Source: Antedon mediterranea
Taxonomy: Eukaryota; Animalia; Echinodermata
DNA: 64,000 nt
Assembly: GCF_964355755.1 (NCBI RefSeq)
Contig: NC_092675.1
Span: 28,926,912-28,990,911, forward strand
Reading direction: 5' to 3'
The notes under the pieces are model-generated. The model saw nothing but the letters and a program-made list of their open reading frames with translations. It had not been told where the DNA came from and did not search any database. A program made the position numbers and the translations under genes. Within the stretch, counting starts at the first letter, position 1, and every line of letters begins with the position of its first letter. Positions 1,862-59,371 of this stretch are shown piece after piece.

Positions 1862-3359
1862 ATCAAGATAAGGTCAGAAAGCGATAAAACGCATAGTGAT
1901 ACCGGACCGACAGACAGACAGACCGACAGACAGACCGACAGACAGACAGACAGACCGACCGACCGACCGACATAGTGAACTATAGAGTCGCTTCCACGCG
2001 ACTAAAAATACAATTATTAGAAATAATAATATTACTCAGAAGCATTTTTAAATAAAAAAGTTAAATATAAATTTGAAAAAGGTAACCTGTAAAAGTGTGC
2101 AAGGAATAACCTGATAAGGTTAGAACATAGCAGGCCTACATAAAAGCTTTCACTTATATATTTCAACATTTATTAGTTTCTATCAATAGTAAAACAATAC
2201 AATAAAAAAAGTGGTAATATATAATAATGAAACAATACAACAATACCATTAATAGAGGATCTTGCAAGAAGCAAGACGTGACAACCTGTTAATTAGCTTT
2301 GGCAGAAAATTATTGAATTCAGATAGATTTTCAGGGGCATGTGCAGGATTTATTTTTAGGGGAGCTCAAAATGATGAGTGATTTGCGAGGGGAGCAAGTA
2401 TAAATAGATAAAAAATAAATAAATACAAATATATACATTCTGAATAAATCAGTGACAAAATAAACTCTCTATGACTAGTAGTTTTTGAGATATGGTAATT
2501 CTGTAATTTCACCCTAATTTACATATTTAAGCTAATTTGCATATCATCGGGATGAGTGACCAAGGTGATGCTCAAAATTTGATGTCCTCATCATATGTGA
2601 CCATTTAAAAGAGAAAAATCTCTGTTTGCAATTTGTTTCACTTTGGGCTGTTATTTAGATAGATTGCCTACTAACATTATAGTTATAGTTTAGCCTTAAA
2701 TGGTACAAATAATTGTTTTCTATGAGTCTAATGTGGAAAATATTTTCATGTGATGAATAAAAATGCTCTCTCTATATAATACAGAAAACATTTTATTTTT
2801 TCTTAACACATCTACTCCACATTAATAGATCAGTATTTCATTGTTCAATTCGGTTTCAGTCATAAACACAAAACCTGACACTGCCATCATGAGTTGATGT
2901 CAATCAAACCACAGCAAAAAGGCGGTGCTATATGATTTTGGTTGAACAATTATAGATGGCGCACTATAGGTTTGCTTTTTCAATGGCATACTATTTTTCC
3001 ATTAGGACTGTTGCAAGACAAAGCAACTCAACATTTTTACAAGTTGATTATCAAACGGAAGTATTTTAATATCACTTAAAAATTACCATTGGCATGTGAT
3101 ATGAAATCAACCAATAAGATGGCAAAGATATACTTAAGTTTGTTATAAATTAAACTACTCTACCATGATCTAAGCAGTGACAAATGAAGAACAAAACAAG
3201 AATTGTGTCCAAATTTTCTTGGGAAAATTAGAATAACACTGACAGTATATAAAGTTTGCATGCTATTTAAATGAATCAATCTTGTATGAAAGATTTTACT
3301 TTAAATACTCAAGTGGACAAGCTGCTGTAATTTGTTGTTTATAGATTAAACTGAATACA

Positions 3360-5144
3360 ATGAACAGGAATCCTGGACTATATACAATGTTGTTTCAATG
3401 CTTTTCAACAAGACAACTTGGAATATTATTTATGGTTACTTGCTGGTTGCATGTTGTTTCACCTGAGCAAACACACCCACCATTTGTATTTGTGGGAAAT
3501 AAAACAATAAGCATAAGTATGCCTACTGAAGACAAAACTTATTTTGCTGACCAAGAACTTTCTTTCACTTGTAAATTTGAATGGTTTCAAACACGTATCA
3601 ACCAAATAGACATACAGCTTTCACAAAATGGTTCTTTTTTACCTAAAGATTCAGTTAAGATTGTTAAAGGTTTCTCAAATGGGGATTACAGTATACAGGA
3701 TTTTACAGTAATAATTTTAAATCTCACAAAGTTCCACACAGGATCATACAAATGTGTCTATGATAATGGTATGTACAAATCTGAGCAAGAAAAAACAATT
3801 ACAGTTTGGCCAATTCCAGTGGATCCTAAATGTACATCTTTGCAGCCATTTTATTTTGAAGGACAAGAAGTTAGCATCAAATGTGAAGCTATTGCTACAT
3901 ATCCAGACATTACATTAAAATGGAACTCTGGAAATTCCACTGCTAAAAATCCTCACAACATAAAATTCATTGCTGAAAAAGACATGAATGGGCTTAAATA
4001 TAAATGCTTAATGAATGTACCATCATGGAGATCAAGACCCTTTGTTTGTAAATTTTTAATTTTAGTAAAAAACATTGAGATTGTTGTTATAAATAATAAT
4101 GTTACATTAGGACAACCAGCAGCATTGCAATGCATCGTGGGTAACACCAATCAAGAACTCAACTATACTTGGACATTAGAATACAGTAAGTTAAAAAGAG
4201 GAATTCAACAAAATCCAAATTGTAAAAATATCAATGGTGGTAGCAGCAAAAATATGAACTGCAATGAGAAGATACTGAAGATTGAGAAAGTGACAGCTGA
4301 TATGAACAATGCTGTTATCACTTGTGAGGTACAAGGATACAATGTTATTGGAAGAAACTCTAGTATACTTACTGTATATGGACTTACTACTGTAGAACCT
4401 ACAAAAGATACAACTATGATGGAGAAAGAGAAGAACAATAGGAGTGACTTAAGTACACCAGAAAATAAAAAAAATGAAAGAGTTAAGATGTCCAATGACC
4501 CAGACACAGAATTTATTAAAACAATTGCTATAGTTTGTGGAAGTCTTTTACTTATATTTCTGATATATATAATGGTTATTTGCTTCCGTCGTTTGAAAGT
4601 AACTTCAAATCAAGATATCCAAGTTGCTACAAGTATAACCCATGACAATGACTCTTACAACACAGTGCCATTGCCCATCAGTGCACAATTGACATCAGAC
4701 AATACACAATATCATGGTGCTACTTGTCTTAATATCAATAGAGAAGAGAATCCTGAATTTCATATTTATCAAGACATCAACGTAAATTCTGAAGATGTCA
4801 CTGATGAATACCTAATTCCTCTGGCAATGGTTAAACAATTTGATAGCTCAAATTGTGAAGAAAATATGACATATATTAAACAAACATGTGAAGGAATGGT
4901 TAATAAGTCAACAAGCAATTTGGAAGGTGACAACACAACAGATGATTTGTACACTCATCATGACATAAGCACAACTTTTGATGATGTCACTGATGGATAC
5001 CTAACTCCTGTAATTTTTGCAGAGCAGGTTAAAAAAGATGAAAACTCCAAACATACTGAACATGAAGAATACCCCTACAAAGAGAGTGTAGATCTCATTA
5101 AAAATGATAAGACAGATTCTCTTTATCTTGAGATTATTGAGTAA
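3360..5144 (+). CDS. g1: 3-Ig-domain type I membrane receptor, ectodomain type A + short tail S1 (intact, 594 aa)
   Basis: Hydrophobic N-terminus. Ig Cys pairs LSFTC..GSYKC, SIKC..W..YKC and ALQC..W..VITC. TM IAIVCGSLLLIFLIYIMVICF. Tail motifs YNTV, YQDI, DEYLIP, DGYLTP and terminal SLYLEI (fits the ITIM consensus S/I/V/L-x-Y-x-x-I/V/L). Confidence 0.88.
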   Translation: MNRNPGLYTMLFQCFSTRQLGILFMVTCWLHVVSPEQTHPPFVFVGNKTISISMPTEDKTYFADQELSFTCKFEWFQTRINQIDIQLSQNGSFLPKDSVKIVKGFSNGDYSIQDFTVIILNLTKFHTGSYKCVYDNGMYKSEQEKTITVWPIPVDPKCTSLQPFYFEGQEVSIKCEAIATYPDITLKWNSGNSTAKNPHNIKFIAEKDMNGLKYKCLMNVPSWRSRPFVCKFLILVKNIEIVVINNNVTLGQPAALQCIVGNTNQELNYTWTLEYSKLKRGIQQNPNCKNINGGSSKNMNCNEKILKIEKVTADMNNAVITCEVQGYNVIGRNSSILTVYGLTTVEPTKDTTMMEKEKNNRSDLSTPENKKNERVKMSNDPDTEFIKTIAIVCGSLLLIFLIYIMVICFRRLKVTSNQDIQVATSITHDNDSYNTVPLPISAQLTSDNTQYHGATCLNINREENPEFHIYQDINVNSEDVTDEYLIPLAMVKQFDSSNCEENMTYIKQTCEGMVNKSTSNLEGDNTTDDLYTHHDISTTFDDVTDGYLTPVIFAEQVKKDENSKHTEHEEYPYKESVDLIKNDKTDSLYLEIIE

Positions 5145-6881: not shown

Positions 6882-8420
6882 ATGTTTTTACATTTACCAA
6901 CTTTAATACTTGCAATATTATTCATTTTTGGTTCCCATATTGGCTCATCGCAAATAGACAAAACACAGTATCCATAAGTATAGAAGACAAAACATATTTT
7001 GTTTCTCAAGAACTTATTATTTCTTGTAAATTTGACTATTTTCAAACACATCTTGAGCAGCAAGATTTAATACTTACAAACAATGAATCAATTCTGACAC
7101 AGGATTCATTAAATATTGAAGAAATTTCTGGAAGCAAACAGGAATTTAAAATAACAATTTCAAATCTTAAAGAGTCTCACACAGGATCATACAAATGTGG
7201 CACCACACAGGGCACAGATATAAGTGGACAGTCTAAACAACAAATGGTCAAAGTTTGGCCAATTCCTGAGTACCCTAGGTGCACAGCATCCCCAGAATTC
7301 TATTTTGAAGGTCAAAACTTGACCTTAACGTGTGAAACCATTGCTACATATCCTAATTTTACATTAAAATGGAATAATGAACAACACCAACATGAAAATA
7401 TTAAAATCCAAAAAGTCATTGCCACAAAGGAAAACAATGGTTCAACACATACATGTATATTGGATGTACTAGCATGGAGTAGAGTGAAACTTTGTAAAAT
7501 TGAAATTTCAATAAAACAGATAAATATTGTTGGCAATACTGTTGCATTAGGACGACCTGCAATGTTGCAATGCATTGTGGATGATGTCATCTCAGGTCTC
7601 ACCTATACCTGGACATCTGAATCTAGCAGTTTAGTAGAAGAAATTGAACAAAACAAAAATTGTAACTACATCAATGGTAATAGCAGCAATAAAAATTGCC
7701 AAACACTTGGAGATAACAAGATCCTATACATTGAGAAAGTGACAGCTGATATGAACAATACGATTATCACTTGTCAGGTGCAATGGTACAATGTTATTGG
7801 AAAAAACTCAAGTATACTTACTGTAAATGAACTACCTACTGTAGAACATACAAAAGATGCAGTAACTTCTATAGAACCTAGAGAGACTAGAAGAGAACTA
7901 ACTACACAAGAAAATACAAAAATGAAGGAGAACAGTGACAATGAGACTTATAATAACAGCAACAACAATGTTACTTATATATATGTCATTGTTGCTTTTT
8001 TTGGATCTCAAGGCATCAAATCAAAGTGTTCCTCAGGTTGGCACAACTGCAGCTACTATGAGCTATGTCAATGACTCTTACAGAGCCTTGCCATTGTCCA
8101 CCAGTGCACCATCTACATCAGACAATGCACAATCTCATGGTGATATTATTTTAAATAATCTGAAGAAAGAAGAGAATGCTGAATTCCATATTTATCAGGA
8201 TATCAACACAATGTCTGATGACATTAAAGATGATTACCTAATTCCTTTGACAATAGTTAAACAATTTGATAACGGCCCTAAATGTCAAGAAAATATAATA
8301 GATATTGAACATGAGGAAGAAACTTGTCAAGGAATGGTAAAGTCAACAAACACTCTGGAAGTTGACAACAAATTAGATGAAAATGTTGATTTACATACTT
8401 ATTATAACAGCAACTTTTGA
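6882..8420 (+). pseudogene. g2: Ig receptor pseudogene, ectodomain type B + tail S2
   Basis: ATG at 6882 (MFLHLPTLI..., as in g4 and g10). A ~10-bp deletion near 6966 gives an early stop. A ~53-bp deletion near 8009 (relative to g4) removes most of the TM and shifts frame. The fragments are ORFs 7244-8074 and 7935-8420. Confidence 0.85.
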
Positions 8421-10567: not shown

Positions 10568-12631
10568 ATGAACAGGAATCCTGGACTAGATACAATGTTG
10601 TTTCAATGCTTTTCAACAAGACAACTTGGAATATTATTTATGGTTACTTGCTGTTTGCATGTTATTTCACCTGAGCAAACACACCCACCATTTGTATTTG
10701 TGGGAAATAAAACAATAAGCATAAGTATGCCTACTGAAGACAAAACTTATTTTGCTGACCAAGAACTTTCTTTCACTTGTAAATTTGAATGGTTTCAAAC
10801 ACGTATCAACCAAATAGACATACAGCTTTCACAAAATGGTTCTTTTTTACCTAAAGATTCAGTTAAGATTGTTAAAGGTTTCTCAAATGGGGATTACAGT
10901 ATACAGGATTTTACAGTAATAATTTTAAATCTCACAAAGTTCCACACAGGATCATACAAATGTGTCTATGATAATGGTATGTACAAATCTGAGCAAGAAA
11001 AAACAATTACAGTTTGGCCAATTCCAGTGGATCCTAAATGTACATCTTTGCAGCCATTTTATTTTGAAGGACAAGAAGTTAGCATCAAATGTGAAGCTAT
11101 TGCTACATATCCAGACATTACATTAAAATGGAACTCTGGAAATTCCACTGCTAAAAATCCTCATAACATAAAATTCATTGCTGAAAAAGACATGAATGGG
11201 CTTAAATATAAATGCTTAATGAATGTACCATCATGGAGATCAAGACCCTTTGTTTGTAAATTTTTAATTTTAGTAAAAAACATTGAGATTGTTGTTATAA
11301 ATAATAATGTTACATTAGGACAACCAGCAGCATTGCAATGCATCGTGGGTAACACCAATCAAGAACTCAACTATACTTGGACATTAGAATACAGTAAGTT
11401 AAAAAGAGGAATTCAACAAAATCCAAATTGTAAAAATATCAATGGTGGTAGCAGCAAAAATATGAACTGCAATGAGAAGATACTGAAGATTGAAAAAGTG
11501 ACAGCTGATATGAACAATGCTCTCATCACTTGTGAGGTACAAGGGTACAATGTTATTGGAAGAAACTCTAGTATACTTACTGTAAATGGACTTACTACTG
11601 TAGAACATACAAAAGATGCAGTAACTTCTATAGAACCTAGAGAGACTAGAAGAGAACTAACTACACAAGAAAATACAAAAAGTAAGGAGAACAGTGACAA
11701 TGAGACTTACAATGTTACCTATATATATATCACTGTTGCTATTTTTGGATCTCTTTTGTTTTTCATATTCCTAATCTATATTGTGAGAATATGCTTCCAG
11801 TGTTTCACAAAGTCTTCAAATCAAAGCAGTGATGTTGGTACAATACAAGCTATTGTAAGCTATGATAATGACTCTTACAGAACAGTACCATTGGTGGTTC
11901 GTGCAGCATCAAAATCCAAACTCCATCATACATCACAGCAATTATTAACAGACAACCAGATGAGCTCTGCTTCGAGTGTGATCTCATTACCAGATGAAAG
12001 ACAATGTCAACGCATGAAACAAACATGGATATCGACACGTCACCTAACACCAGTACATTCAACCACTACATTTGGATCTAGTGATGATGAATATAAACAC
12101 AGCATTGATGACATGTTGAATGACCCTATGTATGATGAGATAAATTCTAAAACATTGAAAAATCAGAGAGAAGATTTGAGAACAGAAGCAGACCAAGTTG
12201 AACCTACCTGGAGTGGTGCAAAGCACAGAGATGGCAACGGAGCTGATGGTGATGAACACAAGACAAACACTGAAGATCCATATCAAGAAATTAGGAACGA
12301 GTTTACAGCAAGAGACAAAAGACTCACATCAGAAGGAAATGCTTTGAATACTTATGAGAAAATATCAGAATTGGAAGCTGGTTTTAATTCTGAAGAGGTG
12401 CATGAAAATTCGTCTCAAGAAAAATGCCTTAATAAACAAATAAAAGAAGAGTTTGGAAAAACACAAACAAAATCAAACAGCAGTGAAACAGAACATATCT
12501 ACTCTCAAGTTAACAAAAAGATGAAAAACAAAGTTTTAAAAGATCAATATCTGGAGATATATGCAGAGACTGTGGACGTTGTCAGGAGCGATGCAAGTGA
12601 ATCTGAAGACGAAACAGAAACAACCTGTTAA
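10568..12631 (+). CDS. g3: 3-Ig receptor, ectodomain type A + long tail L (intact, 687 aa)
   Basis: Ectodomain is nearly identical to g1. Stalk matches g2. TM IYITVAIFGSLLFFIFLIYIV. L tail carries YDEI, YQEI, YEKI, IYSQV and YLEIYAETV. Confidence 0.9.
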   Translation: MNRNPGLDTMLFQCFSTRQLGILFMVTCCLHVISPEQTHPPFVFVGNKTISISMPTEDKTYFADQELSFTCKFEWFQTRINQIDIQLSQNGSFLPKDSVKIVKGFSNGDYSIQDFTVIILNLTKFHTGSYKCVYDNGMYKSEQEKTITVWPIPVDPKCTSLQPFYFEGQEVSIKCEAIATYPDITLKWNSGNSTAKNPHNIKFIAEKDMNGLKYKCLMNVPSWRSRPFVCKFLILVKNIEIVVINNNVTLGQPAALQCIVGNTNQELNYTWTLEYSKLKRGIQQNPNCKNINGGSSKNMNCNEKILKIEKVTADMNNALITCEVQGYNVIGRNSSILTVNGLTTVEHTKDAVTSIEPRETRRELTTQENTKSKENSDNETYNVTYIYITVAIFGSLLFFIFLIYIVRICFQCFTKSSNQSSDVGTIQAIVSYDNDSYRTVPLVVRAASKSKLHHTSQQLLTDNQMSSASSVISLPDERQCQRMKQTWISTRHLTPVHSTTTFGSSDDEYKHSIDDMLNDPMYDEINSKTLKNQREDLRTEADQVEPTWSGAKHRDGNGADGDEHKTNTEDPYQEIRNEFTARDKRLTSEGNALNTYEKISELEAGFNSEEVHENSSQEKCLNKQIKEEFGKTQTKSNSSETEHIYSQVNKKMKNKVLKDQYLEIYAETVDVVRSDASESEDETETTC

Positions 12632-13383
12632 TGGAAGACTACTACAACTACAGTATACAAGGTAATTTGCGATACACGTTTTATTTTTAATGTTATCTAT
12701 TTTACTCAACTAAAGTAATCAGAGATGTTTTTATAACTACCATGTTTTCTGAAAATCAAATTGGTACTAAGCTGCGAATTGTCAACTAATTTGTCTGCTC
12801 CCAAACAGTCACCAAAAAGTACCGATAAAGAAGACTGTTTTAGATGATGGTGACTATGAATGGATGAATGGTTCAGTGTAGGAATGCTAGTTAACCATAC
12901 TAACAGTACCATCTTGATTTTTGGATCAGCTGACAAAACTATCATTTAGTTATAATAATAATAATATTTATTCAGCATGTTATATAAAGTACAATCTTCC
13001 AGGAGCAAGCAATAGGCATATGCCTGAACATAATTAACTACTCTTGTTCCAACAAATACAAATAGAACCGCAACAAAACTTAATTTATTTGAACATTTGT
13101 ATTAGAGGGCAGTATAAAGTTTTCTCATAATATACAATAATATGAAATTACTAACTTTCCATAAATTAAATGAAAACCGAAACCAAATCAAAAACTACAA
13201 CATACCTAATATAAATGCTTCATTTACAAACTGAAATGATTGGCTAGAAATTTCTCATCATGAATAATATTTCTTTATACAGTCTTACACAACTTCATAT
13301 TTAGCTATTGTACTGTACGATGGTCTACTGTAAGCAGTGTAGAATAAATCAATCATTTGACCGGAATTCTAGGATTAAATACA

Positions 13384-14974
13384 ATGTTTTTACATTTACC
13401 AACTTTAATACTTGGAATATTATTCATTTTTGGTTCCCATATTGGCTCATCGCAAATAGACAAAACAGAATCTCCAACAGTAAGCATAAGTATAGAAGAT
13501 AAAACATATTTTGTTTCTCAAGAACTTATTATTTTTTGTAAATTTGACTTTTTTCAAACACATCTTGAGCAGCAAGATTTAATACTTACAAACAATGGAT
13601 CAATTCTGACACAGGATTCATTCAATATTGAAGACATTTCTGGAAGCAAACAGGAATTTAAAATAACAATTTCAGATCTTACGGAGTCCCACACAGGATC
13701 ATACAAATGTGGCAACATTTTAAATGAACAGACTAATCAACAAATGGTCAAAGTTTGGCCAATTCCAGAGGACCCTAGGTGCACAGCATCCCCAGAGTTT
13801 TATCTTGAAGGACAAAACTTGACCTTAACATGTGAAACCAATGCTATATATCCGAATTTAATGAACAACCCCAACATGAAAATCTACAAATCCAAAAAGT
13901 CATTGCCACAAAGGAAAACAATGGTTCAAAACAGACATGTATATTGGATGTACTATCATGGAGTACAGTGAAACTTTGTAAAATTGAAATTTCAATCAAA
14001 CAGATAATTATTGTTGGCAATATTGTTGCATTAGGACGACCTGCAACGTTGCAATGCATTGTGAATGATGTCATCCCAGGTCTCACCTATACTTGGACAT
14101 CTGAATCTAGCAGTTTTTATCAAAACAGAAATAAAACTTATGATTACACTAATAATATCAGCAACAGCACAAACTGGCAAACATTAGGCAATGAGAATAC
14201 ACTGAACATTGAGAAAGTGACAGCTGATATGAACAATGCTGTTATCACTTGTGAAGTAGAAAGGTACAATGTTATTGGAAGAAACTCTAGTATACTTACT
14301 GTAAATGGACTACCTACTGTAGAACCTACTATAGATACAATAACTACTACAGACACTACAACAGAAAAATTATGACTACAAACGAAAAACATACTGGAAG
14401 AGAACTAACTACACAAGAAAATACAAAAATTAAGAAGAACAGTGACAATGAGAATTACAATGACAGCAACAACAATGTTACTTATATATATGTAATTGTT
14501 GCTTTTTTTGGATCTCTGATGTTATTGATATTTCAAATCTACATTCTGGTAATTTGCTTCCATCGCTTCAAGGCATCAAATCAAAGTGTTCCTCAAGTTG
14601 GCACAACTCCACCTACTATCAGCTATGTCAATGACTCTTACAGAGCAGTGCCATTTTCCATCAGTACACCATCTACATCAAACAATACACAATCTCATGG
14701 AGATATTATTTTCCATAATCTCAATAAAGAAGAGAATGCTGAATTCCATATTTATCAGGACATCAACACAACTTCTGATGACATCACAGATAACTACCTA
14801 ATTCCTTTGACAATAGTTAAACAATTTGATCACAGCTCTAATTGTGAACAAAATGTAAAAGATATGAAACATGAAGCTTGTGAAGGAAAGGTAAAGTCAA
14901 CAAGCAATCTGGAAGTTGAAAACACAGATGAAAATGTTGATTTACACACTTATTATAACATCAGTAAGTTTTGA
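13384..14974 (+). pseudogene. g4: Ig receptor pseudogene, ectodomain type B + tail S2
   Basis: ATG at 13384. A ~16-bp deletion near 13860 and a 1-bp deletion near 14368 split the gene into ORFs 13357-13971, 13944-14375 and 14372-14974, which are collinear with g10 and g2. Confidence 0.85.
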
Positions 14975-17223: not shown

Positions 17224-18777
17224 ATGTTGTCATCAAAGTCAGTTTTAGTGAACTTGTTGATACTATTTACAACTTGCTGTTATTGCCAAGATTCCTATAG
17301 ATATGCACAACCAATGCCTGAACAAAGTGTTGACATTTTCATACCAAAAGGAACATACTTTGTTGGTAACAATTTAACTATTTCTTGTGAATATAAATAC
17401 ATTGAAGACTTCCATAAGAAACAAATTGCACTTTTACACGATAGTAAAATTATTGAAATACACTTTTTTGACTATAAAAAAACTTAAGATATTTTCACCA
17501 GAATATATGAATTGAGAAATATTTTAAACAATAACTCTGGATCATACAAGTGTGCATATAATACTAGCGACAAGTTTATTTTATTATCTGAAGAAAAATG
17601 TCTTCAAGTTTGGTCAAAACCTGAGAACCCTAAATGCAAAGTTTCTCCAGAATTCTATTTTGAGGGACAAGAAGTGACATTAATATGTGAAACCAGTGGT
17701 ACATATCCAGAATTTTCCTTAAAATGGGGACTTGATCAACCCACTTCAAAAAATCAAGTTACAAAAATCGTAATTGCGATGAAAGATATTAATGGTTCTG
17801 AATATAAATGTATCTTGAATGTACAGAATTCAGTTAAACAGTGTCAAATCATAATTAAAATACATAATGTACACATTTTTGGTAATAATGTTACATTTGG
17901 TCAACCAGCAATTTTTAAATGCATTGTGTCTGATAATACAAATAATACCATTCCAGAACTCAACTATACATGGACATCAGAATCTAAAGGTTTAAAGAGA
18001 TTAATTGAAATGGAAAAAAGAAATACAAGTTGTAAGAATATCAACGGTAACAACACAGATTGCCAAACATTTGGAGAAGACAAGATTCTAAACATTAAGA
18101 AAGTGACAACTGATATGAACAATGCTGTTATCACTTGTGAGGTACAAGGGTATAATGTTATTGGAAGAACCTCTAGTATACTTACAGTACATGGACTACC
18201 TACTGTAGAACCTACAACAGAAACAATAACTACTACAGAACCTACAAGAGATAGAGCTACGACAGAAAAAGATAAGCACACTAGAAGAGAACTAACTACA
18301 CAAGAAAATACAAAAAGTAGAGAGAACAGTGACAATGAGACTTACAATGACAGCAACAACAATTTTACTTATATATATATCATTGTTGCTATTTTTGGAT
18401 CTCTGATGTTATTGATATTTCAAATATACATTCTGGTAATTTGCTTCCATCGATTTAAGGCATCAAATCAAAGTGTTCCTCAGGTTGGCACAACTCCACC
18501 TACTATCAGCTATGTCAATGACTCTTACAGAGCAGTACCATTGTCCACCAGTTCACCATCTACATCAGACAATACACAATCTCATGGTGACATTATTTTC
18601 CATAATCTCAAGAAAGAAGAGAATGCTGAATTCCATATTTATCAGGACATCAACACAACTTCTGATGCCATCACAGATGAATACCTTATTCCTTTGACAA
18701 TTGTTAAACAACATGATCACAGTTGGAATTGTGAAGAAATTATAAATGATATTAAATACAAGGAAACAAGCCTATGA
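17224..18777 (+). pseudogene. g5: Ig receptor, ectodomain type C + tail S2, with an in-frame nonsense codon in Ig domain 1
   Basis: ORFs 17224-17487 and 17512-18777 are in the same frame, separated by TAA at 17485-17487 where paralogs have AAA. A +1 frameshift near 18765 cuts off the distal tail, whose remnant runs to SLYLEIIE* at ~19035. Confidence 0.82.
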
Positions 18778-19818
18778 AGAAATGGTTAAGGCAACAAACA
18801 ATTTGGAAGTTGACACAATTGATGACAGTGTTAATTTACACACTTATCATGACACAAGCACAACTTTTGGTGATGTCACTGATGGATACACCATAACTCC
18901 TGAAAATTTGGCAGAGCAGGTTAAAAAAGATGCAAACTCTAAACATACTGAAAGTGAAGAACACCCTGTAAAGCAATGGTAGATCCCATTAAAAAATAAT
19001 ATGACCAGTTCTCTTTATCTAGAGATTATTGAGTAATGTTTATATAACATTTACACTATTAGGATAGGCTAAAAATTATATCAAATTTTAAACTCATTTA
19101 ATCATTGTTTTTCAAAGGTATTTCCTAAACCTTCTGAAGTTTATTGTGAGTGATAATACCAATACTAAAACAAACTAACAACTATTATTTTTAAGGATTA
19201 CAGATTAAATTCTACGAATATTTTTTAGTTCAGATTTTAATCTGAGCTCCATCTTCTATTTCCTTCTTATATAATGATTATGAAAAAGTAAATTGTCAAG
19301 AATTTTAAGGTAAAAACTAGATAATTTTTCTCATCAAACAACATTGAAAACTAAACTGTAACAATAACAAACATGCCTGTTAATTGTTTTCTTTTGTGTT
19401 GATATTAATTGTGAAACAAATAAAAGTGAAAGTGAATTAAACTTTATATCTGGAAAGAGTTTCAGTAGATCAGATGTTTCCAGTATTTTGTAAGCAAACA
19501 TTTAATAAAATTATGTACAAAATATTCTAAAGGTAAAATTTATACACTTAAATTGTGAATGGAATGTAAATCTGTATACACATATACAGGACACAGCAAG
19601 ACACATTGCTGCTTTAACTAAATAAATAAATTTGGAACCAATATATTTTGAATACTATAAGTGTATTTGTAATGCATACATGACAAATTGTCAAGAACAT
19701 AATTGTATCTATGATATTGCTGTACGCTTTTGTGTTTTTAATTATTCAATTAAAACAAATTTGTTTACTTGACAGATTTAAGCATAAGATTGATTGGCTG
19801 AAAACAAACCAATGACAC

Positions 19819-19991
19819 CTAGCTAGGCTAGACCTAAAGACCGTCCAGTACTTAGTGCATTGTTTCTCTCTTTTTATCATAATTTTCAATAAAACGTACA
19901 TTTAAAACAAAGGAATGACCAGGTTTAATGTTTTTAAAGTAATATTAATCATTCTGTTTACAAAACGTTCACATTTGTAGGGAATGGGGCT
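19819..19991. mobile_element. Right-end fragment of the Kolobok-like element (second fragment at ~30755-30904)
   Basis: Matches 15970-16163 and ends GTAGGGAATGGGGCT followed by TTAA. Confidence 0.65.
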
Positions 19992-21341
19992 TTAATTGAT
20001 TGAATACAATTGTATACAGAGGGCGCTAAATAATAATTGAATAGGCCTACTGATATGAAACTGATATTAAATAAAATCATTTTAAACTAATAATTAAACT
20101 GCCTATATCTGAAGCAAATGTTGACTAAATATAATTGTTAATCTTTAATTTTAACTTTATTTTTAACATTACATTTTTATTTGCTTTACCTCTTATTTTT
20201 ATTTCTAAATAGTTTTTGCATCTGTATAAACATGGTGGTATAAATTACCTTTTCTGCAATTTCCTTCTGATATTTTGGATAAACGAAATAATATCTCGAT
20301 ATTTCTAATTTCTTTTTAAATTCTTTTTCTTTCTTTATAAATTACCAGAAGAAAAAAAAAGAAAATATTCTAATATTGTTTTGCAGAATGTTTATATTAA
20401 AATGAATGTATAGTTTAATAAGTGAAATAATGAGTTGGCATCGTATTTTCCCGCCCTTTGGCATGTCTGACATACCTATGTTTACTATTATAAATACCAA
20501 TACCTGCTTTTTTTAAATAGCACCCTCTATGGTTTGATGTGTTTTTCAAAATATTATAGCTCCTCTATAGTTTGGACATGATTTTGTAAAACCTCCTGGT
20601 ATTTCATTTTTCCAAGTTGGGAGGTCTGACTCACAGGAACAAGCCACATAATTTAGCCTAGTAAAAAAATGTTATTAGGGTCTATCAAATATTCTAATAT
20701 AATAATTTTGCATCATCATCTGGATAATTAAAACGGAAAATAGGATTTCCAACTTTAAAAGAAGTTATTGACTAATCCATTACTGTCTTGCCATAAATAC
20801 CTATACATACTTTATACAGTTTATAAAGATTTGACATTTAGATAAAGTGCACATAAAACAGTGTCAATAGGAAATAACTGCATTTAAAGCATAAAAAAAT
20901 TAACAAAAACAGAGTATAACAAAACAAACAAAAATTAATAGCAGAATGTAGAAACTTGACTAAAAGCACAAGATTGATTGGCTGAGAATAAACCAATTAC
21001 AATCAAGTGATTGTAGCTATATACAACGCAACAAGTACAGTGACACCCAGAATCTTACTGTAAGACTCGGACTCGGAAGATTTTTGTGATAATGCAGTAA
21101 AGGAGTTCTTGTCGTAGTTATTTATACTAAAACTGGAATATACATTAATTTGCATTTTGATTGTTTATTTTGATTGCTTTTAACTTTATTTCTATATTTG
21201 AATGTCGTTCCTAATTTAAATGAACTGTATGCAGCAAGAAAAACAAGGAATATTGGAAACTGCAGGACTAAAGAGAAACAGAGACAGGTGAAAAATATAG
21301 TACAGTACATTTTATAGAAGGCATACATCCATGTTGATGCA

Positions 21342-22919
21342 ATGTTGTCATCAAAGTCAGTTTTAGTGAACTTGTTGATACTATTTACAACTTGCTGTTA
21401 TTGCCAAGATTCCTATAGCTATGTACAACCACTGCCTGAACCAAGTGTTGAAATTTTCATTCCGGTAGGAACATACTTTGTTGGTAATAATTTAACTATT
21501 TCTTGTGAATATAAATACATTGAAGACTTCCATAAGAAGCACATTGCACTTTTACGCAATAGTAACATTATTGAGATACACTTTTTTGACTATAGAACAA
21601 ATAAAGACATTTTTAAAAGAACATATGAATTGAGAAATCTTTTAAACAATAACTCTGGATCATACAAATGTGCATATAACACTAGCAACAAGTCTATTTT
21701 TCCATCTGAAGAAAAAGTTATTAAAGTTTGGTCAAAACCAGAGAATCCCAAATGCAAAGTTTCTCCACAATTCTATTTTGAAGGACAAGAAGTGACATTA
21801 ATATGTGAAACCAGTGGTACATATCCAGAATTTACCTTAAAATGGGGATTTGATGAACCAATTTCAAAAAATCAAGTTACAAAAAACGTAACTGCGATGA
21901 AAGATATTAATGGTTCTATACATCAATGTATCTTGAATGTACAGAATTCAGTTAAACAGTGTCAAACCATTATTAAAATACATAATGTACACATTTTTGG
22001 TAATAATGTTACATTTGGTCAACCAGCAATTTTGCAATGCATTGTGTCTGATACGAATAATACCATTCCAGAACTCAACTATACATGGACATCAGAATCT
22101 AAAAGTTTAAAGAGATTAATTGAAACAGAAAAAAGTAATACAAGTTGTAAGAATATCAACGGTAACAACACAGATTGCCAAACATTTGGAGAAGACAAGA
22201 TTTTAAACATTGAGAAAGTGACAGCTGATATGAACAATGCTGTTATCACTTGTGAGGTACAAGGGTACAATGTTATTGGAAGAAACTCAAGTATACTTAC
22301 TGTAAATGGACTACCTACTATAGAACCTACAACAGATACAACTATGATGGAGAAAGATAAGAACAATAGGAATGGAACTACACAAGAAAATACAAAAACT
22401 GAGGGTAGTAGAAATGACCCAGACACAGAATTCATTAAAACCATTGCTATAGTTTGTGGAAGTCTTTTACTGATATTTCTGATATACATTATGGTTATTT
22501 GCTTCCGTCGTTTGAAAATAACTTCAAATCAAGATATCCAAGTTGGTACAAGTATAACCTGTGACAATGACTCTTATAACACAGTGCCATTGCCTATAAG
22601 TGCACCATTAACATCAGACAATGCACAATCTCGCATTACTTGCCTTAAAGAAGATAATTCTGAATTTCATATTTATCAGGATATTAACATAAATGCTGAA
22701 GATGTCACAGATGATTACCTTATTCCTTTGAAAACATGTAACCAACATGATCAGAGCTCTAATTATGAAGAAAATATAAAATATATAAACCAGGAACAAG
22801 CCTGTGAAGGAATAACAAACAATTTTGAAGTTGACAACACAACGGGTGGCAGTGTTGATTTACACAGTTATCATGACATAAGCACAACTTTTGATGATGT
22901 CACTGATGGATACCTGTAA
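21342..22919 (+). CDS. g6: 3-Ig receptor, ectodomain type C + tail S1, C-terminally truncated (525 aa)
   Basis: Open ORF. TM and tail resemble g1. A short deletion after DGY creates the stop. The remnant of the DSLYL(D)IIE* end lies downstream at ~23008-23037. Confidence 0.85.
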   Translation: MLSSKSVLVNLLILFTTCCYCQDSYSYVQPLPEPSVEIFIPVGTYFVGNNLTISCEYKYIEDFHKKHIALLRNSNIIEIHFFDYRTNKDIFKRTYELRNLLNNNSGSYKCAYNTSNKSIFPSEEKVIKVWSKPENPKCKVSPQFYFEGQEVTLICETSGTYPEFTLKWGFDEPISKNQVTKNVTAMKDINGSIHQCILNVQNSVKQCQTIIKIHNVHIFGNNVTFGQPAILQCIVSDTNNTIPELNYTWTSESKSLKRLIETEKSNTSCKNINGNNTDCQTFGEDKILNIEKVTADMNNAVITCEVQGYNVIGRNSSILTVNGLPTIEPTTDTTMMEKDKNNRNGTTQENTKTEGSRNDPDTEFIKTIAIVCGSLLLIFLIYIMVICFRRLKITSNQDIQVGTSITCDNDSYNTVPLPISAPLTSDNAQSRITCLKEDNSEFHIYQDININAEDVTDDYLIPLKTCNQHDQSSNYEENIKYINQEQACEGITNNFEVDNTTGGSVDLHSYHDISTTFDDVTDGYL

Positions 22920-25110: not shown

Positions 25111-27117
25111 ATGTTGTCATCAAAGGCAGTTTTAGTGAACTTTGTAATACTATTCCTAACAACTTGCTGTCCTTGCAAAGGTACACTAGAACCAGCTAAA
25201 CCAAGTGTTAACATTTTCATTCCGGTAGGAACATACTTTGTTGGTAACAATTTAACTATTTCTTGTGAATATAAATACATTGAAGACTTCCATAAGAAAC
25301 ACATTGCACTTTTTCACAATAGTAAAATAATTGAGATACACTTTTTTGATGATAGAACAAATAAAGACATTTTCACCAGAAAATATGAAATGAGAAATAT
25401 GTTAAGGAATAACTCTGGATCATACAAGTGTGTATATAATACTAGCAACAAGTCTATTTTTCCATCTGAAGAAAAAGTTATTCAAGTTTGGTCAAAACCA
25501 GAGAATCCCAAATGCAAGGTTTCTCCACAATTCTATTTTGAAGGACAAGAAGTGACATTAATTTGTGAAACCAGTGGTACATATCCAGAATTTACCTTAA
25601 AATGGGAATTTGATCAACCCACTTCAAAAAATCAAGTTACAATAAACGTAACTGCCACGAAAAATATTAATGGTTCTAAACATCAATGTATCTTGAATGT
25701 ACAGAATTCAGTTAAACAGTGTCAAATCATTATTAAAATACATAATGTACACATTTTTGGTAATAATGTTACATTTGGTCAACCAGCAATTTTGCAATGC
25801 ATTGTGTCTGATATGAATAATACCATTCCAGAACTCAACTATACATGGACATCAGAATGTAAAAGTTTGAAGAGATTAATTGAAACAGAAAAAAGTAATA
25901 CAAGTTGTAAGAATATCAACGGTAACAACACAGATTGCCAAACATTTGGAGAAGACAAGATCCTAAACATTGAGAAAGTGACAGCTGATATGAACAGTGC
26001 TGTTATCACTTGTGAGGTACAAGGGTACAATGTTATTGGAAGAAACTCTAGTATACTTACTGTAAATGGACTACCTACTGTAGAACCAACAAGATATAGA
26101 GCTACGACAGAAAAAGATACACAAGAAAATACAAAAAGTAAGGAGAACAGTGACAATAAGCCTTACAATGACAGCAACAACAATGTTACTACTTATATAT
26201 ATATCATTGCTGCTATTTTTGGATCTCTTTTGTTTTTTATATTCCTAATCTATATTGTGAGAATATGCTTCCAGTGTATAAAAAAATCTTCACACCAAAG
26301 CAGCGATGTTGGTACAATACAAGCTATTGTAAGCTATGATAATGAATCTTACAGAACAGTACCATTGGTGGTTCGTGCACCATCAAAATCCAAACTCCAC
26401 CATACATCACAGCAATTATTAACAGACAACCAGATGAGCTCTGCTCCGAGTGTGATTTCATTACCAGATGAACGGCAACGTCAACGCATGAAACAAACAT
26501 GGATATCAACACGTCACCTAACACCCATACATTCAACCACTACATTTGGATCCAGTGATGATGAATATACACACAGCATTGATGACATGTTTAATGACCC
26601 TATGTATGATGAGATAAATTCTAAAACATTAAAAAATCAGAGGGAAGATTTGAGAACAGAAGCTGACCAAGTTGAGCCTTCTTGGAGTGGTGCAAAGCAC
26701 AGAGATGGCAACAAAGCTGATGGTGATGTACACAAGACAAAAACTGAAGATCCATATCAAGAAATTGAGAATGAATTTACAACAAGAAACAAGAGACTCA
26801 GATCAGAAGAAAATGTTCTGAATCCAGAATTGGAAGTTGGTTTTAATACTGAAGAGGTGAATGAAAGTATCTATACACAACCAGATAAAAAGAAATTGTC
26901 TCAAGAAAAAAACCTTAATAAACAAATAAAGGAAGAGTTTGGAAAAACACAAACAAAATCAAACAGCAGTGAAACAGAACATATCTACTCTCAAGTTAAC
27001 AAAAAGTTGAAAAACAAAGTTTTAAAGGATCAATATTTGGAGATATATGCAGAGACTGTGGACGTTGTCAGGAGTGATGGAAGTGAGTCTGAAGATGAAA
27101 CAGAAACTACATGTTAA
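25111..27117 (+). CDS. g7: 3-Ig receptor, ectodomain type C + tail L (intact, 668 aa)
   Basis: Signal peptide MLSSKAVLVNFVILFL, three Ig Cys pairs, TM and L tail. An in-frame deletion removes the YEKIS motif. Confidence 0.9.
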   Translation: MLSSKAVLVNFVILFLTTCCPCKGTLEPAKPSVNIFIPVGTYFVGNNLTISCEYKYIEDFHKKHIALFHNSKIIEIHFFDDRTNKDIFTRKYEMRNMLRNNSGSYKCVYNTSNKSIFPSEEKVIQVWSKPENPKCKVSPQFYFEGQEVTLICETSGTYPEFTLKWEFDQPTSKNQVTINVTATKNINGSKHQCILNVQNSVKQCQIIIKIHNVHIFGNNVTFGQPAILQCIVSDMNNTIPELNYTWTSECKSLKRLIETEKSNTSCKNINGNNTDCQTFGEDKILNIEKVTADMNSAVITCEVQGYNVIGRNSSILTVNGLPTVEPTRYRATTEKDTQENTKSKENSDNKPYNDSNNNVTTYIYIIAAIFGSLLFFIFLIYIVRICFQCIKKSSHQSSDVGTIQAIVSYDNESYRTVPLVVRAPSKSKLHHTSQQLLTDNQMSSAPSVISLPDERQRQRMKQTWISTRHLTPIHSTTTFGSSDDEYTHSIDDMFNDPMYDEINSKTLKNQREDLRTEADQVEPSWSGAKHRDGNKADGDVHKTKTEDPYQEIENEFTTRNKRLRSEENVLNPELEVGFNTEEVNESIYTQPDKKKLSQEKNLNKQIKEEFGKTQTKSNSSETEHIYSQVNKKLKNKVLKDQYLEIYAETVDVVRSDGSESEDETETTC

Positions 27118-28138: not shown

Positions 28139-29524
28139 ATGTTGTCACAATTGTTTACTTTAAATTTTCAAATAATGATTATGGCTTCATGTTTGCATAC
28201 TACAACATCAGAAACAGAACATTTACCACCAGCAGGACGTCCAGAAATAAGCATCAGTATTGAAAAGAAAGCATATTTTGTTGGCCAAGAACTTCAAGCT
28301 ACTTGTACATTTGAATCATTTAACACGGAAGGAAATTTAAACACAAATTACATTCAACTTTTACTAAATGATATAGCTTTAACAATTGACAAATCACAGA
28401 TTGTTACTATTTATGTAAGCAGCGATTACAATACACAGGTTTATCGTATAACAATTTCAAAACTCACAGAGTCTCTCACAGGATCATATAAATGTGGATA
28501 TATAGACGCTAAGGATTTAAATAAATCTTCTACACAAGACATAACAGTTTGGCCAATTCCAAAGGATCCAAACTGTACATCCTCCCAACCATTCTATTTT
28601 AAAGAACAAAACGTGACCTTAACATGTGAAGCCATTGCTTCATATCCAGATCTTGAATTGAGATGGAACCCTGATAAACCAACTTCTAAAAACAATCACA
28701 ACAAAATATTAATTGCTAATAAAGATGTGGAAAGTCGTTGCATAATGAATGTACCATCATGGAACTCACCAACATTTTTTTGTGATATTAAAATTGTAGT
28801 CACAAATCTTGAAGTGTATAATATTGATAATTTTACATTAGGACAATCTGCAAAATTAAAATGCATTGTGGGTACCATCAATAATACTGTCCCAGAACTA
28901 AACTATACTTGGATATCAGACTCTAGCAGTTTAAACAAAGAAATAAAGCAAAATGCAAATCCAAATTGTGCAAAAACCAATAGTAATAATAGCAACAGCA
29001 CAAACTGCATTGGAGAAGACAATATTCTAAACATTGAGAAAGTGACAGCTGATATGAACAATGCTGTTATCACTTGTGAGGTACAAGGGTACAATGTTAT
29101 TGGAAGAAACTCTAGTATACTTACTGTAAATGAACTACCTACTGTAGAACCAACAACAGATACAATAACTACTATAGAACCTACAAGAGATAGAGCTACG
29201 ACAGAAAAAGATAAGCACACTAGAAGAGAACTAACTACACAAGAAAATACAAAAAGTAAGAAGAACAGTGACAATGAGACTTACAATGACAGCAACAACA
29301 ATGTTACTACTTATATATATATCATTGTTGTTATTTTTGGATCTCTGATGTTATTGATATTTCAAATCTACATTATGGTTATTTGCTTCCATCGTTTTAA
29401 GGCATCAAATCAAAGTGTTCCTCAGGTTGGCACAACTCCACCTACTATCAGCTATGTCAATGACTCTTACAGAGCAGTGCCATTGTCCATCAGTGCACCA
29501 TCTACATCAGACAATACACAATAA
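28139..29524 (+). CDS. g8: 3-Ig receptor, ectodomain type D + tail S2 cut by a premature stop
   Basis: ATG at 28139 (MLSQLF, as in g11/g12). Ectodomain and TM are intact. TAA at 29522-29524 replaces the TCT seen in g4/g5. The rest of the tail (YQDI, DDYLIP) continues in frame after the stop. Confidence 0.8.
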   Translation: MLSQLFTLNFQIMIMASCLHTTTSETEHLPPAGRPEISISIEKKAYFVGQELQATCTFESFNTEGNLNTNYIQLLLNDIALTIDKSQIVTIYVSSDYNTQVYRITISKLTESLTGSYKCGYIDAKDLNKSSTQDITVWPIPKDPNCTSSQPFYFKEQNVTLTCEAIASYPDLELRWNPDKPTSKNNHNKILIANKDVESRCIMNVPSWNSPTFFCDIKIVVTNLEVYNIDNFTLGQSAKLKCIVGTINNTVPELNYTWISDSSSLNKEIKQNANPNCAKTNSNNSNSTNCIGEDNILNIEKVTADMNNAVITCEVQGYNVIGRNSSILTVNELPTVEPTTDTITTIEPTRDRATTEKDKHTRRELTTQENTKSKKNSDNETYNDSNNNVTTYIYIIVVIFGSLMLLIFQIYIMVICFHRFKASNQSVPQVGTTPPTISYVNDSYRAVPLSISAPSTSDNTQ

Positions 29525-32471: not shown

Positions 32472-34502
32472 ATGTTGTCATCCAAGGCAGTTTTAGTGAA
32501 CTTTGTAATACTATTTCTAACAACTTGCTGTCCTTGCAAAGGTAACCTAGAACCAGCTGAACCAAGCGTTGAAATTTTCATCCCGGTAGGAACATACTTT
32601 GTTGGTAACAATTTAACAATTTCTTGTGAATATAAATACATTGACAACTTTCATAAGAAACACATTGCACTTTTACACAATAGTAAAATAATTGAGATAC
32701 ACTTTTTTCAATATAGAACAAATAAAGACATTTTCACCAGAAGATATGAAATGAGAAATATGTTAAAGAATAACTCTGGATCATACAAATGTGCATATAA
32801 TACTAGCAACAAGTCTATTTTTCCATCTGAAGAAAAGGTTATTCAAGTTTGGTCAAAACCAGAGAATCCCAAATGCAAAGTTTCTCCAGAATTCTATTTT
32901 GAAGGACAAGAAGTGACATTAACATGTGAAACCAGTGGTACATATCCAGAATTTACCTTAAAATGGGGATTTGATCAACCCACTTCAAAAAATAAAGTTA
33001 CAAAAAACGTAACTGCCACGAAAAATATTAATGGTTCTATACATAAATGTATCTTGAATGTACAGAATTCAGATAAAATTTGTAAAATCATAATTAAAAT
33101 AAGTAATGTTCACATTTTTGGTAATAATGTTACATTTGGTCAACCAGCAATTTTGAAATGCATTGTCTCTGATACGAATAATACCATTCCAGAACTCAAC
33201 TATATGTGGACATCAGAATCTGAAAGTTTAAAGAGAATAATGGAAATGGAAAAAAGAAATACAAGTTGTAAGAATATCAACGGTAACAACAAAGACTGCC
33301 AAACATTTGGAGAAGACAAGATCCTGAACATTGAGAATGTGACAGCTGATATGAACAATGCTGTTATCACTTGTGAGGTAGAAGGGTACAATGTTATTGG
33401 AAGAAACTCTAGTATACTTACTGTAAATGGACTACCTACTGTTGAACCTACAACAGATACAGTTATGAAAGAAAAAGATAAGAACACTAGAAGAGAACTA
33501 ACTACACAAGAAAATACAAAAATTAAGGAGAACAGTGACAAGACTTATAATGATAGAAACAACAATGTTACTACTTATATATATATCATTGTTGCTATTT
33601 TTGGATCTCTTTTGTTTTTTATATTCCTAATCTATATTGTGAGAATATGCTTCCAGTGTATAAAAAAATCTTCAAACCAAAGCAGCGGGGTTGGTACAAT
33701 ACAAGCTATTGTAAGCTATGATAATGAATCTTACAAAACAGTGCCATTGGTGGTTCGTGCAGCATCAAAATCCAAACTCCATCATACATCACAGCAATTA
33801 TTAACAGACAACCAGATAAGTTCTGCTCCGAGTATGATCTCCTTACCAGATGAACGGCAATGCCAACGCATGAAACAAACATGGGTATCAACACGTCACC
33901 TAACACCAGTACATTCAACCACTACATTTGGATCTAGTGATGATGAATATACACACAGCATTGGTGAAATGTTTAATGACCCTATGTATGATGAGATAAA
34001 TTCTAAAACATTGAAAAATCAGAGGGAGGATTTGAGAACAGAAGCTGATCAAGTTGAGCCTTCTTGGAGTGGTGCAAAGCACAGAGCTGATAGTGATGGA
34101 CACAAGACAAACACTGAAGATCCATATCAAAAAATTGGAAATGAGTTTACAGCAAGAGACAAAAGACTGACATCAGAAGAATATGTTCTGAATCCTTATG
34201 AGAAAATATCAGAATTGGAAGCTGGTTTTTATTCTGAAGAGGTGAATGAAAATATCTATTCACAACCAGATAAAAAGAAATCGTCTCAAAAAACAAACCT
34301 TAATAAACAAATAAAGGAAGAGTTTGGAAAAACACAAACAAAATCAAACAGCGGTGAAACAGAACATATTTACTCTCAAGTTAATAAAAAGATGAAAAAC
34401 AAAGTTTTAAAGGATCAATATCTGGAGATATATGCAGAGACTGTAGACGTTGTCAGGAGTGATGCAAGTGAATCTGAAGATGAAACAGAAACAACCTGTT
34501 AA
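32472..34502 (+). CDS. g9: 3-Ig receptor, ectodomain type C + tail L (intact, 676 aa)
   Basis: Same architecture; close paralog of g7. Confidence 0.9.
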   Translation: MLSSKAVLVNFVILFLTTCCPCKGNLEPAEPSVEIFIPVGTYFVGNNLTISCEYKYIDNFHKKHIALLHNSKIIEIHFFQYRTNKDIFTRRYEMRNMLKNNSGSYKCAYNTSNKSIFPSEEKVIQVWSKPENPKCKVSPEFYFEGQEVTLTCETSGTYPEFTLKWGFDQPTSKNKVTKNVTATKNINGSIHKCILNVQNSDKICKIIIKISNVHIFGNNVTFGQPAILKCIVSDTNNTIPELNYMWTSESESLKRIMEMEKRNTSCKNINGNNKDCQTFGEDKILNIENVTADMNNAVITCEVEGYNVIGRNSSILTVNGLPTVEPTTDTVMKEKDKNTRRELTTQENTKIKENSDKTYNDRNNNVTTYIYIIVAIFGSLLFFIFLIYIVRICFQCIKKSSNQSSGVGTIQAIVSYDNESYKTVPLVVRAASKSKLHHTSQQLLTDNQISSAPSMISLPDERQCQRMKQTWVSTRHLTPVHSTTTFGSSDDEYTHSIGEMFNDPMYDEINSKTLKNQREDLRTEADQVEPSWSGAKHRADSDGHKTNTEDPYQKIGNEFTARDKRLTSEEYVLNPYEKISELEAGFYSEEVNENIYSQPDKKKSSQKTNLNKQIKEEFGKTQTKSNSGETEHIYSQVNKKMKNKVLKDQYLEIYAETVDVVRSDASESEDETETTC

Positions 34503-37531: not shown

Positions 37532-38068
37532 TAGAAGACAGAAACTTATAAAGGTGAAAACTATACAAGGTATTTTGCACAATAAATTAATATTATTTTT
37601 TATGTGATTTATTTAGCTTGGGGGTAAAAAAAAAAATAAGAACTTTTCCATGTTACCACTTTGAGGTTGATAGAGAGTTGCTATCTAATCATGCATCATA
37701 AAATAACTAGCACTTTAAATGGTCATCACATTATATTTCTATATACTTTTACTTTATAGTGTAAAACCAGAAATATAAGTTTTGTACGAAAGAAATAACT
37801 TAATATGAAATTACCTGAACTATAGAGGGTGCTATCTATAAAAATGTTATTTCAAATGAACAAATAATATTGAATGGCATATAGTAATTTACTTAATACT
37901 ATATTTTCTATTTAGCCAAGTGAAAATCTAAAGAAATTTAATTTATTATTAATATTTCAATATCATAAATACAAACACAGATAATAACAAAAACACAATC
38001 ATTTTTTATGAGGGGTCCCCATATATTTTATTTAAAGACACTAGACCTACATTTTTTCAACCTACTTT

Positions 38069-59368: not shown

Positions 59369-59371
59369 TTA

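Follow-up and report, generated by a model that had tools for sequence, protein, structure and literature searches.

We examined a 64,000-nucleotide stretch of Antedon mediterranea NC_092675.1 (the window, from whose first base all coordinates are counted), in which 12 tandem plus-strand genes at 3.4–45.4 kb encode predicted immunoglobulin (Ig) superfamily membrane receptors, and found that all 12 contain a short coding block much more similar among copies than its flanks are. This block of 122 bases, first marked at 4281..4402 and here called the hub, is the core of an island of about 130 bases; positions given with a plus or minus sign are counted from its start. Judged by its synonymous sites, the hub reflects recent shared ancestry through DNA exchange rather than protein constraint. 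Ordinary recombination likely keeps it alike, and likely also joined the ectodomain types of these receptors to their tail types.

The hub and its diverged flanks

The window is eukaryotic DNA with a guanine-cytosine (GC) content of about 30%, and its receptor array has a repeat unit of about 4 kb. Each of the 12 genes is one open frame or the remnant of one, a single-exon frame without introns that encodes a hydrophobic leader, three Ig domains, a threonine-rich stalk, a membrane segment, and a tyrosine-rich tail. Pfam models Ig_3, Ig_2, or ig matched above the curated cut-off in all six receptor proteins scanned, and the leader and the single hydrophobic stretch 3′ of the stalk were read by eye in the translations. 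A model of domain 1 built from a 10-row alignment reached a predicted local distance difference test score (pLDDT) of 74–91 over residues 11–110, with Ig proteins as its top Foldseek matches (9–16% identity); domains 2 and 3 were modeled poorly, and a single-sequence fold gave a pLDDT of 32.5. Ectodomains fall into four types with 100/100 support each, A (genes 1 and 3), B (genes 2, 4, and 10), C (genes 5, 6, 7, and 9), and D (genes 8, 11, and 12), and tails into three, the long tail L (genes 3, 7, 9, 10, 11, and 12) and the short tails S1 (genes 1 and 6) and S2 (genes 2, 4, 5, and 8).

BLASTN of the gene 1 hub against the window returned exactly 12 full-length matches at 88.5–100% identity to the query, the next-best match being 21 bases long (E value 0.006). 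All 12 positions listed by an earlier sequence-only reading were recovered with offsets of 0–3 bases; its description of the copies as nearly identical is slightly too strong for copies with a mean pairwise identity of 92.6% that differ at 0–18 of 122 bases. The hub encodes the end of the third Ig domain, with its second cysteine and last strand, and the first stalk residues (in gene 1, residues 308–348 of the open reading frame from 3360, with Pfam Ig_3 at residues 241–324), strands being assigned from Pfam and the cysteine pattern and not from the structure model. A transposon origin of the hub was ruled out, as it is in-frame Ig coding sequence found only in the 12 genes within the window.

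Synonymous divergence falls sharply inside the hub. Across 53 pairs of genes with different ectodomain types, the proportion of differing synonymous sites (pS) was 0.457 upstream versus 0.102 in the hub, and that of differing nonsynonymous sites (pN) was 0.374 versus 0.070. The lowest of 71 upstream segments of 41 codons had a pS of 0.33, and the difference between hub and upstream DNA was significant in six of six disjoint between-type pairs (Fisher p=0.0075 to 6e-6). At residues invariant in all 12 copies, between-type codon mismatch was 27.5% upstream (38 columns) versus 6.3% in the hub (21 columns). In comparisons of different tail types, which covered 10 of the 12 genes (genes 2 and 4 being omitted for frameshifts), pS was 0.09 in the hub, rose to 0.41 in the stalk, and reached 0.46 over the membrane segment and on to the SYxxVP motif; this 3′ rise was significant in four of four disjoint pairs (p=0.016 to 0.0007). 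The trough in pairwise synonymous divergence that the sequence-only reading proposed as a check is therefore seen on both sides of the hub (pS 0.46 to 0.10 to 0.46), and its statement that upstream DNA is more divergent among types A–D is borne out; far from equaling the hub, the flanks are about four times more diverged at synonymous sites. Because they are diverged on both the 5′ and 3′ sides, the hub stands as an island. Corrected ratios of nonsynonymous to synonymous divergence (dN/dS) were 0.73 upstream and 0.68 in the hub; since protein constraint would lower dN/dS and spare dS, and the opposite was observed, these values argue for exchange of DNA.

Identity in between-type pairs rises from 0.74 just before the hub to 0.93–0.99 at its start and drops to 0.46 after +132. 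The 5′ edge is ragged, with likeness extending 0–54 bases upstream (median 6.5 in 44 between-type pairs, omitting gene 12, which is identical to gene 11). Of 38 different-tail pairs, 26 have their 3′ edge at +119 to +139 and the remaining 12 at +190 to +355; deletions in the gene 7 stalk can end this 3′ extension early. At 26089–26118 that stalk lacks two in-frame pieces of 30 and 24 bases relative to gene 8, and in-frame indels of this kind make stalk length vary among the receptor genes.

Between-type pN exceeds pS in some segments of domains 1 and 2 and of the leader region (3387–4280 and equivalents), as in alignment columns 101–120 (0.54 versus 0.39) and 221–240 (0.42 versus 0.33), where the alignment is uncertain. 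These values hint at diversifying selection in the three regions.

Exchange junctions and duplicated units

Ectodomains and tails have separate histories. The tail tree splits L from the short tails and S1 within the short tails with full support, the hub tree is an unresolved star except for the identical pair of genes 11 and 12, and the ectodomain and tail trees conflict, as judged from bootstrap support with no formal topology test. Nine of the 12 possible ectodomain–tail combinations are present, with no association within genes (permutation p=0.92). Tail type leans instead to the ectodomain type of the next gene (p=0.05; p=0.10 without gene 11): L is followed by B or D in five of five cases, and S2 by C in three of four.

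Alignment of the DNA between successive hubs gives a clearer picture than this test on few genes. Six of the 11 hub-to-hub blocks have a partner with at least 85% coverage: block 3–4 with 9–10 (99% and 91% covered), 5–6 with 8–9 (89% and 85%), and 10–11 with 11–12 (97% and 99%). Blocks 7–8 and 10–11 cover each other at 75% and 57%, block 4–5 reaches 67%, and blocks 1–2, 2–3, and 6–7 have no partner above 40%. When units were centered on genes instead (n=12), coverage exceeded 65% for genes 11 and 12 only. Spacers take part in the duplication, with 95% of the length of spacer 3–4 covered in 9–10 at 89% identity, and spacer pieces of duplicated blocks are 77–89% identical. On this evidence from sequence comparison, the duplicated unit is a tail, a spacer, and the next ectodomain, running from hub to hub and offset from the gene, an arrangement that is new here. 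Such units point to crossovers inside genes, since conversion alone would duplicate no tail-spacer-ectodomain unit.

Individual exchanges locate some of these junctions. Genes 1 and 3 have a young tract in common (Table 1), and they differ at 4 of 921 ectodomain bases versus 6 of 122 hub bases (p=0.0003); because the hub differs more than the ectodomain, the boundary of this exchange is placed at the hub. Gene 3 equals gene 2 exactly from +106 to +192 (87 bases), beyond which it matches L-tailed genes, and genes 5 and 8 have a tract in common from +101 to +225 (125 bases, 3 mismatches). Likeness runs to about +190 in the pairs 4/10 and 6/9, and genes 2, 3, 4, 5, 7, 8, and 9 change over between S2 and L near the start of the membrane segment. 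The youngest event, the exact tandem duplication that generates gene 11, has its crossover interval at 40625–40631, which is hub +268 to +274, in the membrane-coding segment; this duplication is either very recent or an assembly artifact. Genes 5 and 6, of the same ectodomain type, have a further tract in common in upstream DNA and leader (17032–17342 and 21150–21460, 311 bases, 7 mismatches), which appears conversion-like and lies far from the hub.

Breakpoints are not uniform along the genes, as ectodomain–tail switches are confined to about −50 to +350. The sequence-only reading had the partner switch at or shortly after the hub, which holds only if "shortly" spans about 230 further bases. 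Its proposal that the hub is the island where ectodomains are rejoined to new stalks and tails survives in part: the hub is homogenized by DNA exchange and is the sole stretch alike across all types. It fails as a general rejoining site, given the position of the gene 11 break, the 12 different-tail pairs alike to at least +190, the same-type tract of genes 5 and 6, and a hub that bears no hotspot or targeting mark. As read from these junctions, exchange follows homology, and the hub is special as the only homology common to all types.

Table 1. Receptor genes, hubs, and exchanged or duplicated stretches in the window.
Feature	Position	Strand	Description
Hub, gene 1	4281..4402	+	BLASTN query
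Hub, gene 2	7730..7851	+	BLASTN; most diverged copy, 10 differences from majority state
Hub, gene 3	11489..11610	+	BLASTN
Hub, gene 4	14208..14329	+	BLASTN
Hub, gene 5	18094..18215	+	BLASTN
Hub, gene 6	22209..22330	+	BLASTN
Hub, gene 7	25969..26090	+	BLASTN
Hub, gene 8	29033..29154	+	BLASTN
Hub, gene 9	33330..33451	+	BLASTN
Hub, gene 10	36317..36438	+	BLASTN
Hub, gene 11	40357..40478	+	BLASTN; identical to gene 12 hub
Hub, gene 12	44322..44443	+	BLASTN
Gene 1	3360..5144	+	ectodomain A, short tail S1; intact; sole short tail with C-terminal SLYLEI (ITIM-like) motif
Gene 2	6882..8420	+	ectodomain B, tail S2; broken by an early frameshift and loss of the membrane segment
Gene 3	10568..12631	+	ectodomain A, gene 2-type stalk, long tail L; intact
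Gene 4	13384..14974	+	ectodomain B, tail S2; broken: two frameshifts
Gene 5	17224..18777	+	ectodomain C, tail S2; broken: stop in domain 1, premature tail end
Gene 6	21342..22919	+	ectodomain C, tail S1; deletion near end shortens tail
Gene 7	25111..27117	+	ectodomain C, long tail L; intact
Gene 8	28139..29524	+	ectodomain D, tail S2; stop about 45 residues into cytoplasmic part
Gene 9	32472..34502	+	ectodomain C, long tail L; intact
Gene 10	35438..37531	+	ectodomain B, long tail L; intact
Gene 11	39439..41496	+	hybrid: ectodomain, hub, and stalk of gene 12, tail of gene 10; intact
Gene 12	43404..45446	+	ectodomain D, long tail L; intact
Young exchange tract, genes 1/3	3214..4313	+	1100 bases, 8 mismatches; ends in hub at +32
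Exact tandem duplication	36660..44596	+	36660–40631 = 40625–44596, 3972 bases; generates gene 11
Hub-to-hub block	11619..14168	+	gene 3 tail (L), spacer, gene 4 ectodomain (B); 99% of it aligns with 33460–36277 (genes 9–10)
Hub-to-hub block	18224..22169	+	gene 5 tail (S2), spacer, gene 6 ectodomain (C); 89% of it aligns with 29163–33290 (genes 8–9)

All six long-tailed genes have complete frames, and five of the six short-tailed genes are broken or lack the tail end, with differing lesions (3360–45446). Possible readings are decay of the short tails or an advantage of truncation.

Mechanism and alternatives

We consider it likely that the tandem array misaligns in the germ line and that crossover and conversion are resolved in whatever homology two copies have in common. 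Recombination needs on the order of 100–200 bases of near-identity. Misaligned copies would undergo unequal crossover or gene conversion, and copies differing in both ectodomain and tail could resolve an exchange in the hub only, because the hub is the only stretch alike among all types. Each hub exchange would renew the likeness of the hub, this likeness would favor further exchange, and crossovers recurring at different points within one interval would leave it with a short common ancestry. Copies with a common stalk or tail would exchange further downstream, giving a working zone of about −50 to +350. Crossing over there would keep the frame, delete or duplicate a tail-spacer-ectodomain unit, and yield a hybrid receptor; selection against exchange in ligand-binding domains and tails could, as a conjecture, have left the hub as a remnant. 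Such selection would account for the diverged flanks in the manner of the divergence-peak model (PMC3924837). Each change in copy number could create a new ectodomain–tail pairing, as the duplicating unit is not the gene, and the array would offer an exceptionally clear example in nature of receptor halves being recombined within one exon.

Several observations weigh against this account. Hub copies differ from the majority state at 2–10 of 122 sites and are not very young, and their divergence is about that of ectodomains within a type (pS 0.116), so that most of the homogenization may be old. The signs of conversion within the hub are weak. It holds 12 shared minor alleles, with 21 of 66 pairs incompatible with one tree, and independent mutation on a star expects 5.8 shared alleles, or 7.7–8.9 with rate variation (p=0.0003, 0.025, and 0.083); patchwork conversion is suggested by this pattern, and the sharing has no link to ectodomain type, tail type, or adjacency (p=0.28–0.58). 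GC content at third codon positions (GC3), whose elevation is a frequent but not required sign of conversion, is not raised in the hub (0.22 versus 0.25). The evidence comes from one haplotype, and the youngest crossover lies outside the hub and is possibly an assembly artifact.

Several of these features would also fit a different timing, which we hold possible but doubtful: a one-off or burst homogenization among few ancestral genes, followed by growth of the array through crossovers in the same zone, with the hubs drifting since as relics. This explanation overlaps with recurrent exchange in mechanism and differs from it in timing. It is consistent with the star shape of the hub tree, with the 26 changes private to one or another of the 11 distinct copies, with the weakness of the shared-allele excess under rate variation, and with hub divergence similar to that within types. 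However, the hub contains one end of each of the young tracts of genes 1/3, 2/3, and 5/8, and neighboring genes 9–12, of three ectodomain types, have one allele in common at +8.

Allele frequencies in other sequencing data also speak against a relic. Eight runs contain parts of 24700–34600, four of them, from one sample, with 52–63% of its words and three, from a second organism code, with about 20%. Contigs pile up on the gene 6 hub with loose ends of several flank types (46 each in runs X1, X5, and X6, and 3 in X8), and by this measure the hub is present and multi-copy in the second organism, organism B. The A at +30, carried by 2 of 12 copies here, made up 52% (X5) and 30% (X6) of summed contig depth and 6% in X1, and the A at +80, likewise in 2 of 12 copies here, made up about 64% in organism B and 0% in X1; such depth sums are crude, being inflated by overlapping contigs, and no fixed difference is listed between organism codes A and B. 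These frequencies hint at turnover of hub alleles between organisms. Flanking DNA of all four types occurs next to the hub in independent contigs, which are too short to link ectodomain to tail, and one X8 contig runs through the hub into a gene 4-like stalk, a possible graph path that we did not count as a molecule.

Purifying selection is very unlikely to explain the hub, whether it acted on the nucleotides as a binding site, an RNA element, or an enhancer within the exon, or on the protein, whose membrane-proximal domain might, for instance, make a dimer contact. Hub protein is far better conserved between types than any upstream part, and the word TGACAGCTG stands in the hub core in 11 of 12 copies, with what we presume to be a likeness to homeodomain and E-box sites. 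The unchanged dN/dS nevertheless largely refutes constraint, and 45 columns vary between −12 and +125, many with non-conservative changes. Although genes 4 and 5 are broken, their hubs (3 and 6 differences from the majority state) match it as well as the hubs of intact genes do; that of gene 2, also broken, is the furthest. Between 21900 and 30000 no Rfam match was found, and none of three hubs tested had an unusual fold or hairpin (z-scores of −0.6 to −1.4); low folding z-scores of −3.0 and −2.2 appeared in two segments downstream of the hub (18 segments) and were not common between genes. Constraint alone also leaves the conflicting trees and the hub-to-hub duplications unexplained.

Also very unlikely is a role for the hub as a hotspot or targeted site of recombination, germ-line or somatic, that builds a combinatorial repertoire. 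Its sharp edges, its in-frame position at the boundary of ectodomain and stalk, and the free combination of halves are in keeping with such a site, but the edges are explained by stalk indels together with upstream divergence between types, the youngest crossover lies about 150 bases past the hub, and several of the switches fall within the stalk. There is no rise in GC3, and no hairpin, RNA, or other recombination signal emerged from the folding and Rfam scans, the only signal searches made. A stronger form, in which a dedicated, selected in-exon site pairs ectodomains with tails at a high rate, possibly somatically, to give a combinatorial Ig-receptor repertoire in an echinoderm, is slightly more improbable still. 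Least probable is that the mosaics are assembly artifacts from haplotypes collapsed or misjoined at a repeat, for although the gene 10–12 duplication is exact and was not confirmed in X1, where contigs with gene 11/12 flanks have a depth of 16.5–17, like other single contigs at 8–26, collapse would not yield other hubs that all differ by 2–18 bases, spacer pieces as diverged as those of the duplicated blocks, or flanks of all four types in independent contigs.

Known receptor systems and other features of the window

Neither gene 7 nor a profile built from 8 of the 12 proteins scored a homolog, within length limits, among 4766 and 5813 candidates, respectively, and none of eight window proteins was present as an exact sequence in the protein collection. 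An unindexed protein search gave 98 generic Ig matches at 22–35% identity, of which the two looked up are frog Fc receptor-like proteins by name, and the ESM Atlas returned only general Ig receptor clusters (0.91–0.93). Among the papers listed by literature searches, none described this crinoid receptor family in its title or the opening of its abstract. As no close relative appeared in the databases searched, the family may represent a crinoid recognition system not yet described.

The architecture suggests immune or recognition receptors that would signal through tyrosine motifs. Long tails carry 9–12 tyrosines, several in YxxI or YxxV context. A consensus immunoreceptor tyrosine-based inhibitory motif (ITIM) occurs in 1 of 10 tails scanned, the short tail of gene 1, and the corresponding activation (ITAM) and switch (ITSM) motifs in none.

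Set beside known systems, the array appears to work like the regional conversion of protocadherins and like the hybrid formation of KIR genes, and it is a member of none of the families compared below. What sets it apart is a short island in a single coding exon, bounded on both sides and common to all types, with duplication units offset from genes. In the clustered protocadherins of teleosts, regional gene conversion homogenizes the membrane-proximal part at synonymous sites while the N-terminal domains stay diverse; the stretch affected takes in all of the exon from EC4 or EC5 onward, differs between subclusters, and has raised GC3 (PMC1852091). Tandem genes, a large single variable exon, and membrane-proximal homogenization are common to both. 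In contrast to alpha and gamma protocadherins, whose tails come from spliced constant exons, each crinoid gene has its own tail, the domains are Ig domains rather than cadherin repeats (no cadherin family appeared in the Pfam scan of six receptor proteins), and the island is 130 bases long, bounded on both sides, and common to all types, with no rise in GC3.

KIR genes change in number and form hybrids by unequal crossovers, with breakpoints described in Alu and MLT1 repeats within genes (PMC2816608). The crinoid array resembles the KIR and LILR families in its tandem Ig receptors, long and short tails, and crossovers between paralogs that yield hybrids. Unlike KIR genes, the crinoid genes are intronless and exchange within coding DNA, and they have no sequence relationship to them beyond the Ig fold. 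KIR proteins pair short tails with a charged membrane residue and long tails with ITIMs, whereas crinoid long tails are without consensus ITIM or ITAM, and this pairing of an ITIM tail with a short charged form is absent here, though one ectodomain type carries different tails.

Among invertebrates, the Alr genes of Hydractinia are multi-exon and undergo exon shuffling; their products have an Fn3-like fold, and genetic work ties the family to allorecognition (bioRxiv 10.1101/2022.03.04.482883). In both systems a gene cluster encodes Ig membrane proteins that are divergent and carry tyrosine motifs, and paralogs swap parts; the crinoid genes differ in being single-exon and are known here from sequence. 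Mosaic sequence in the SpTransformer (Sp185/333) family of sea urchins is attributed to duplication, unequal crossing over, and conversion, with flanking short tandem repeats as proposed drivers (PMC8634487). That family is likewise a clustered echinoderm family with mosaic sequence, but its genes have two exons, its products are not Ig or membrane receptors of this plan, and the portion of the account we drew on describes no single shared island. Red and green opsins offer a mirror image: selection against conversion leaves divergence peaks beside regions kept alike (PMC3924837), whereas the crinoid genes are mostly diverged with one short trough.

Two divergently oriented multi-exon housekeeping genes adjoin the array (46560–49990, minus strand, and 50808–56533, plus strand), a uroporphyrinogen decarboxylase gene and a sugar-kinase-like gene that can serve as anchors for the orthologous locus. 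The last uroporphyrinogen decarboxylase exon (56310–56528) is 100% identical over 73 residues to a protein labeled Antedon mediterranea by NCBI, the next match being another crinoid at 74%, which assigns the window to a feather star. We take the sugar-kinase-like gene to belong to FGGY from its translation, one piece of which was scanned without a Pfam match. A frame at 62552–63160 (minus strand), in a GC-richer stretch, has a weak phage-integrase match below cut-off (E value 0.0004) and is presumably a DIRS-type retroelement remnant. A very high-copy short repeat lies at 30786–30901 in the spacer between genes 8 and 9, with contig depth in the thousands, and inverted repeats at 58641–59539 and 62.15–62.45 kb have a small-transposon-like appearance.

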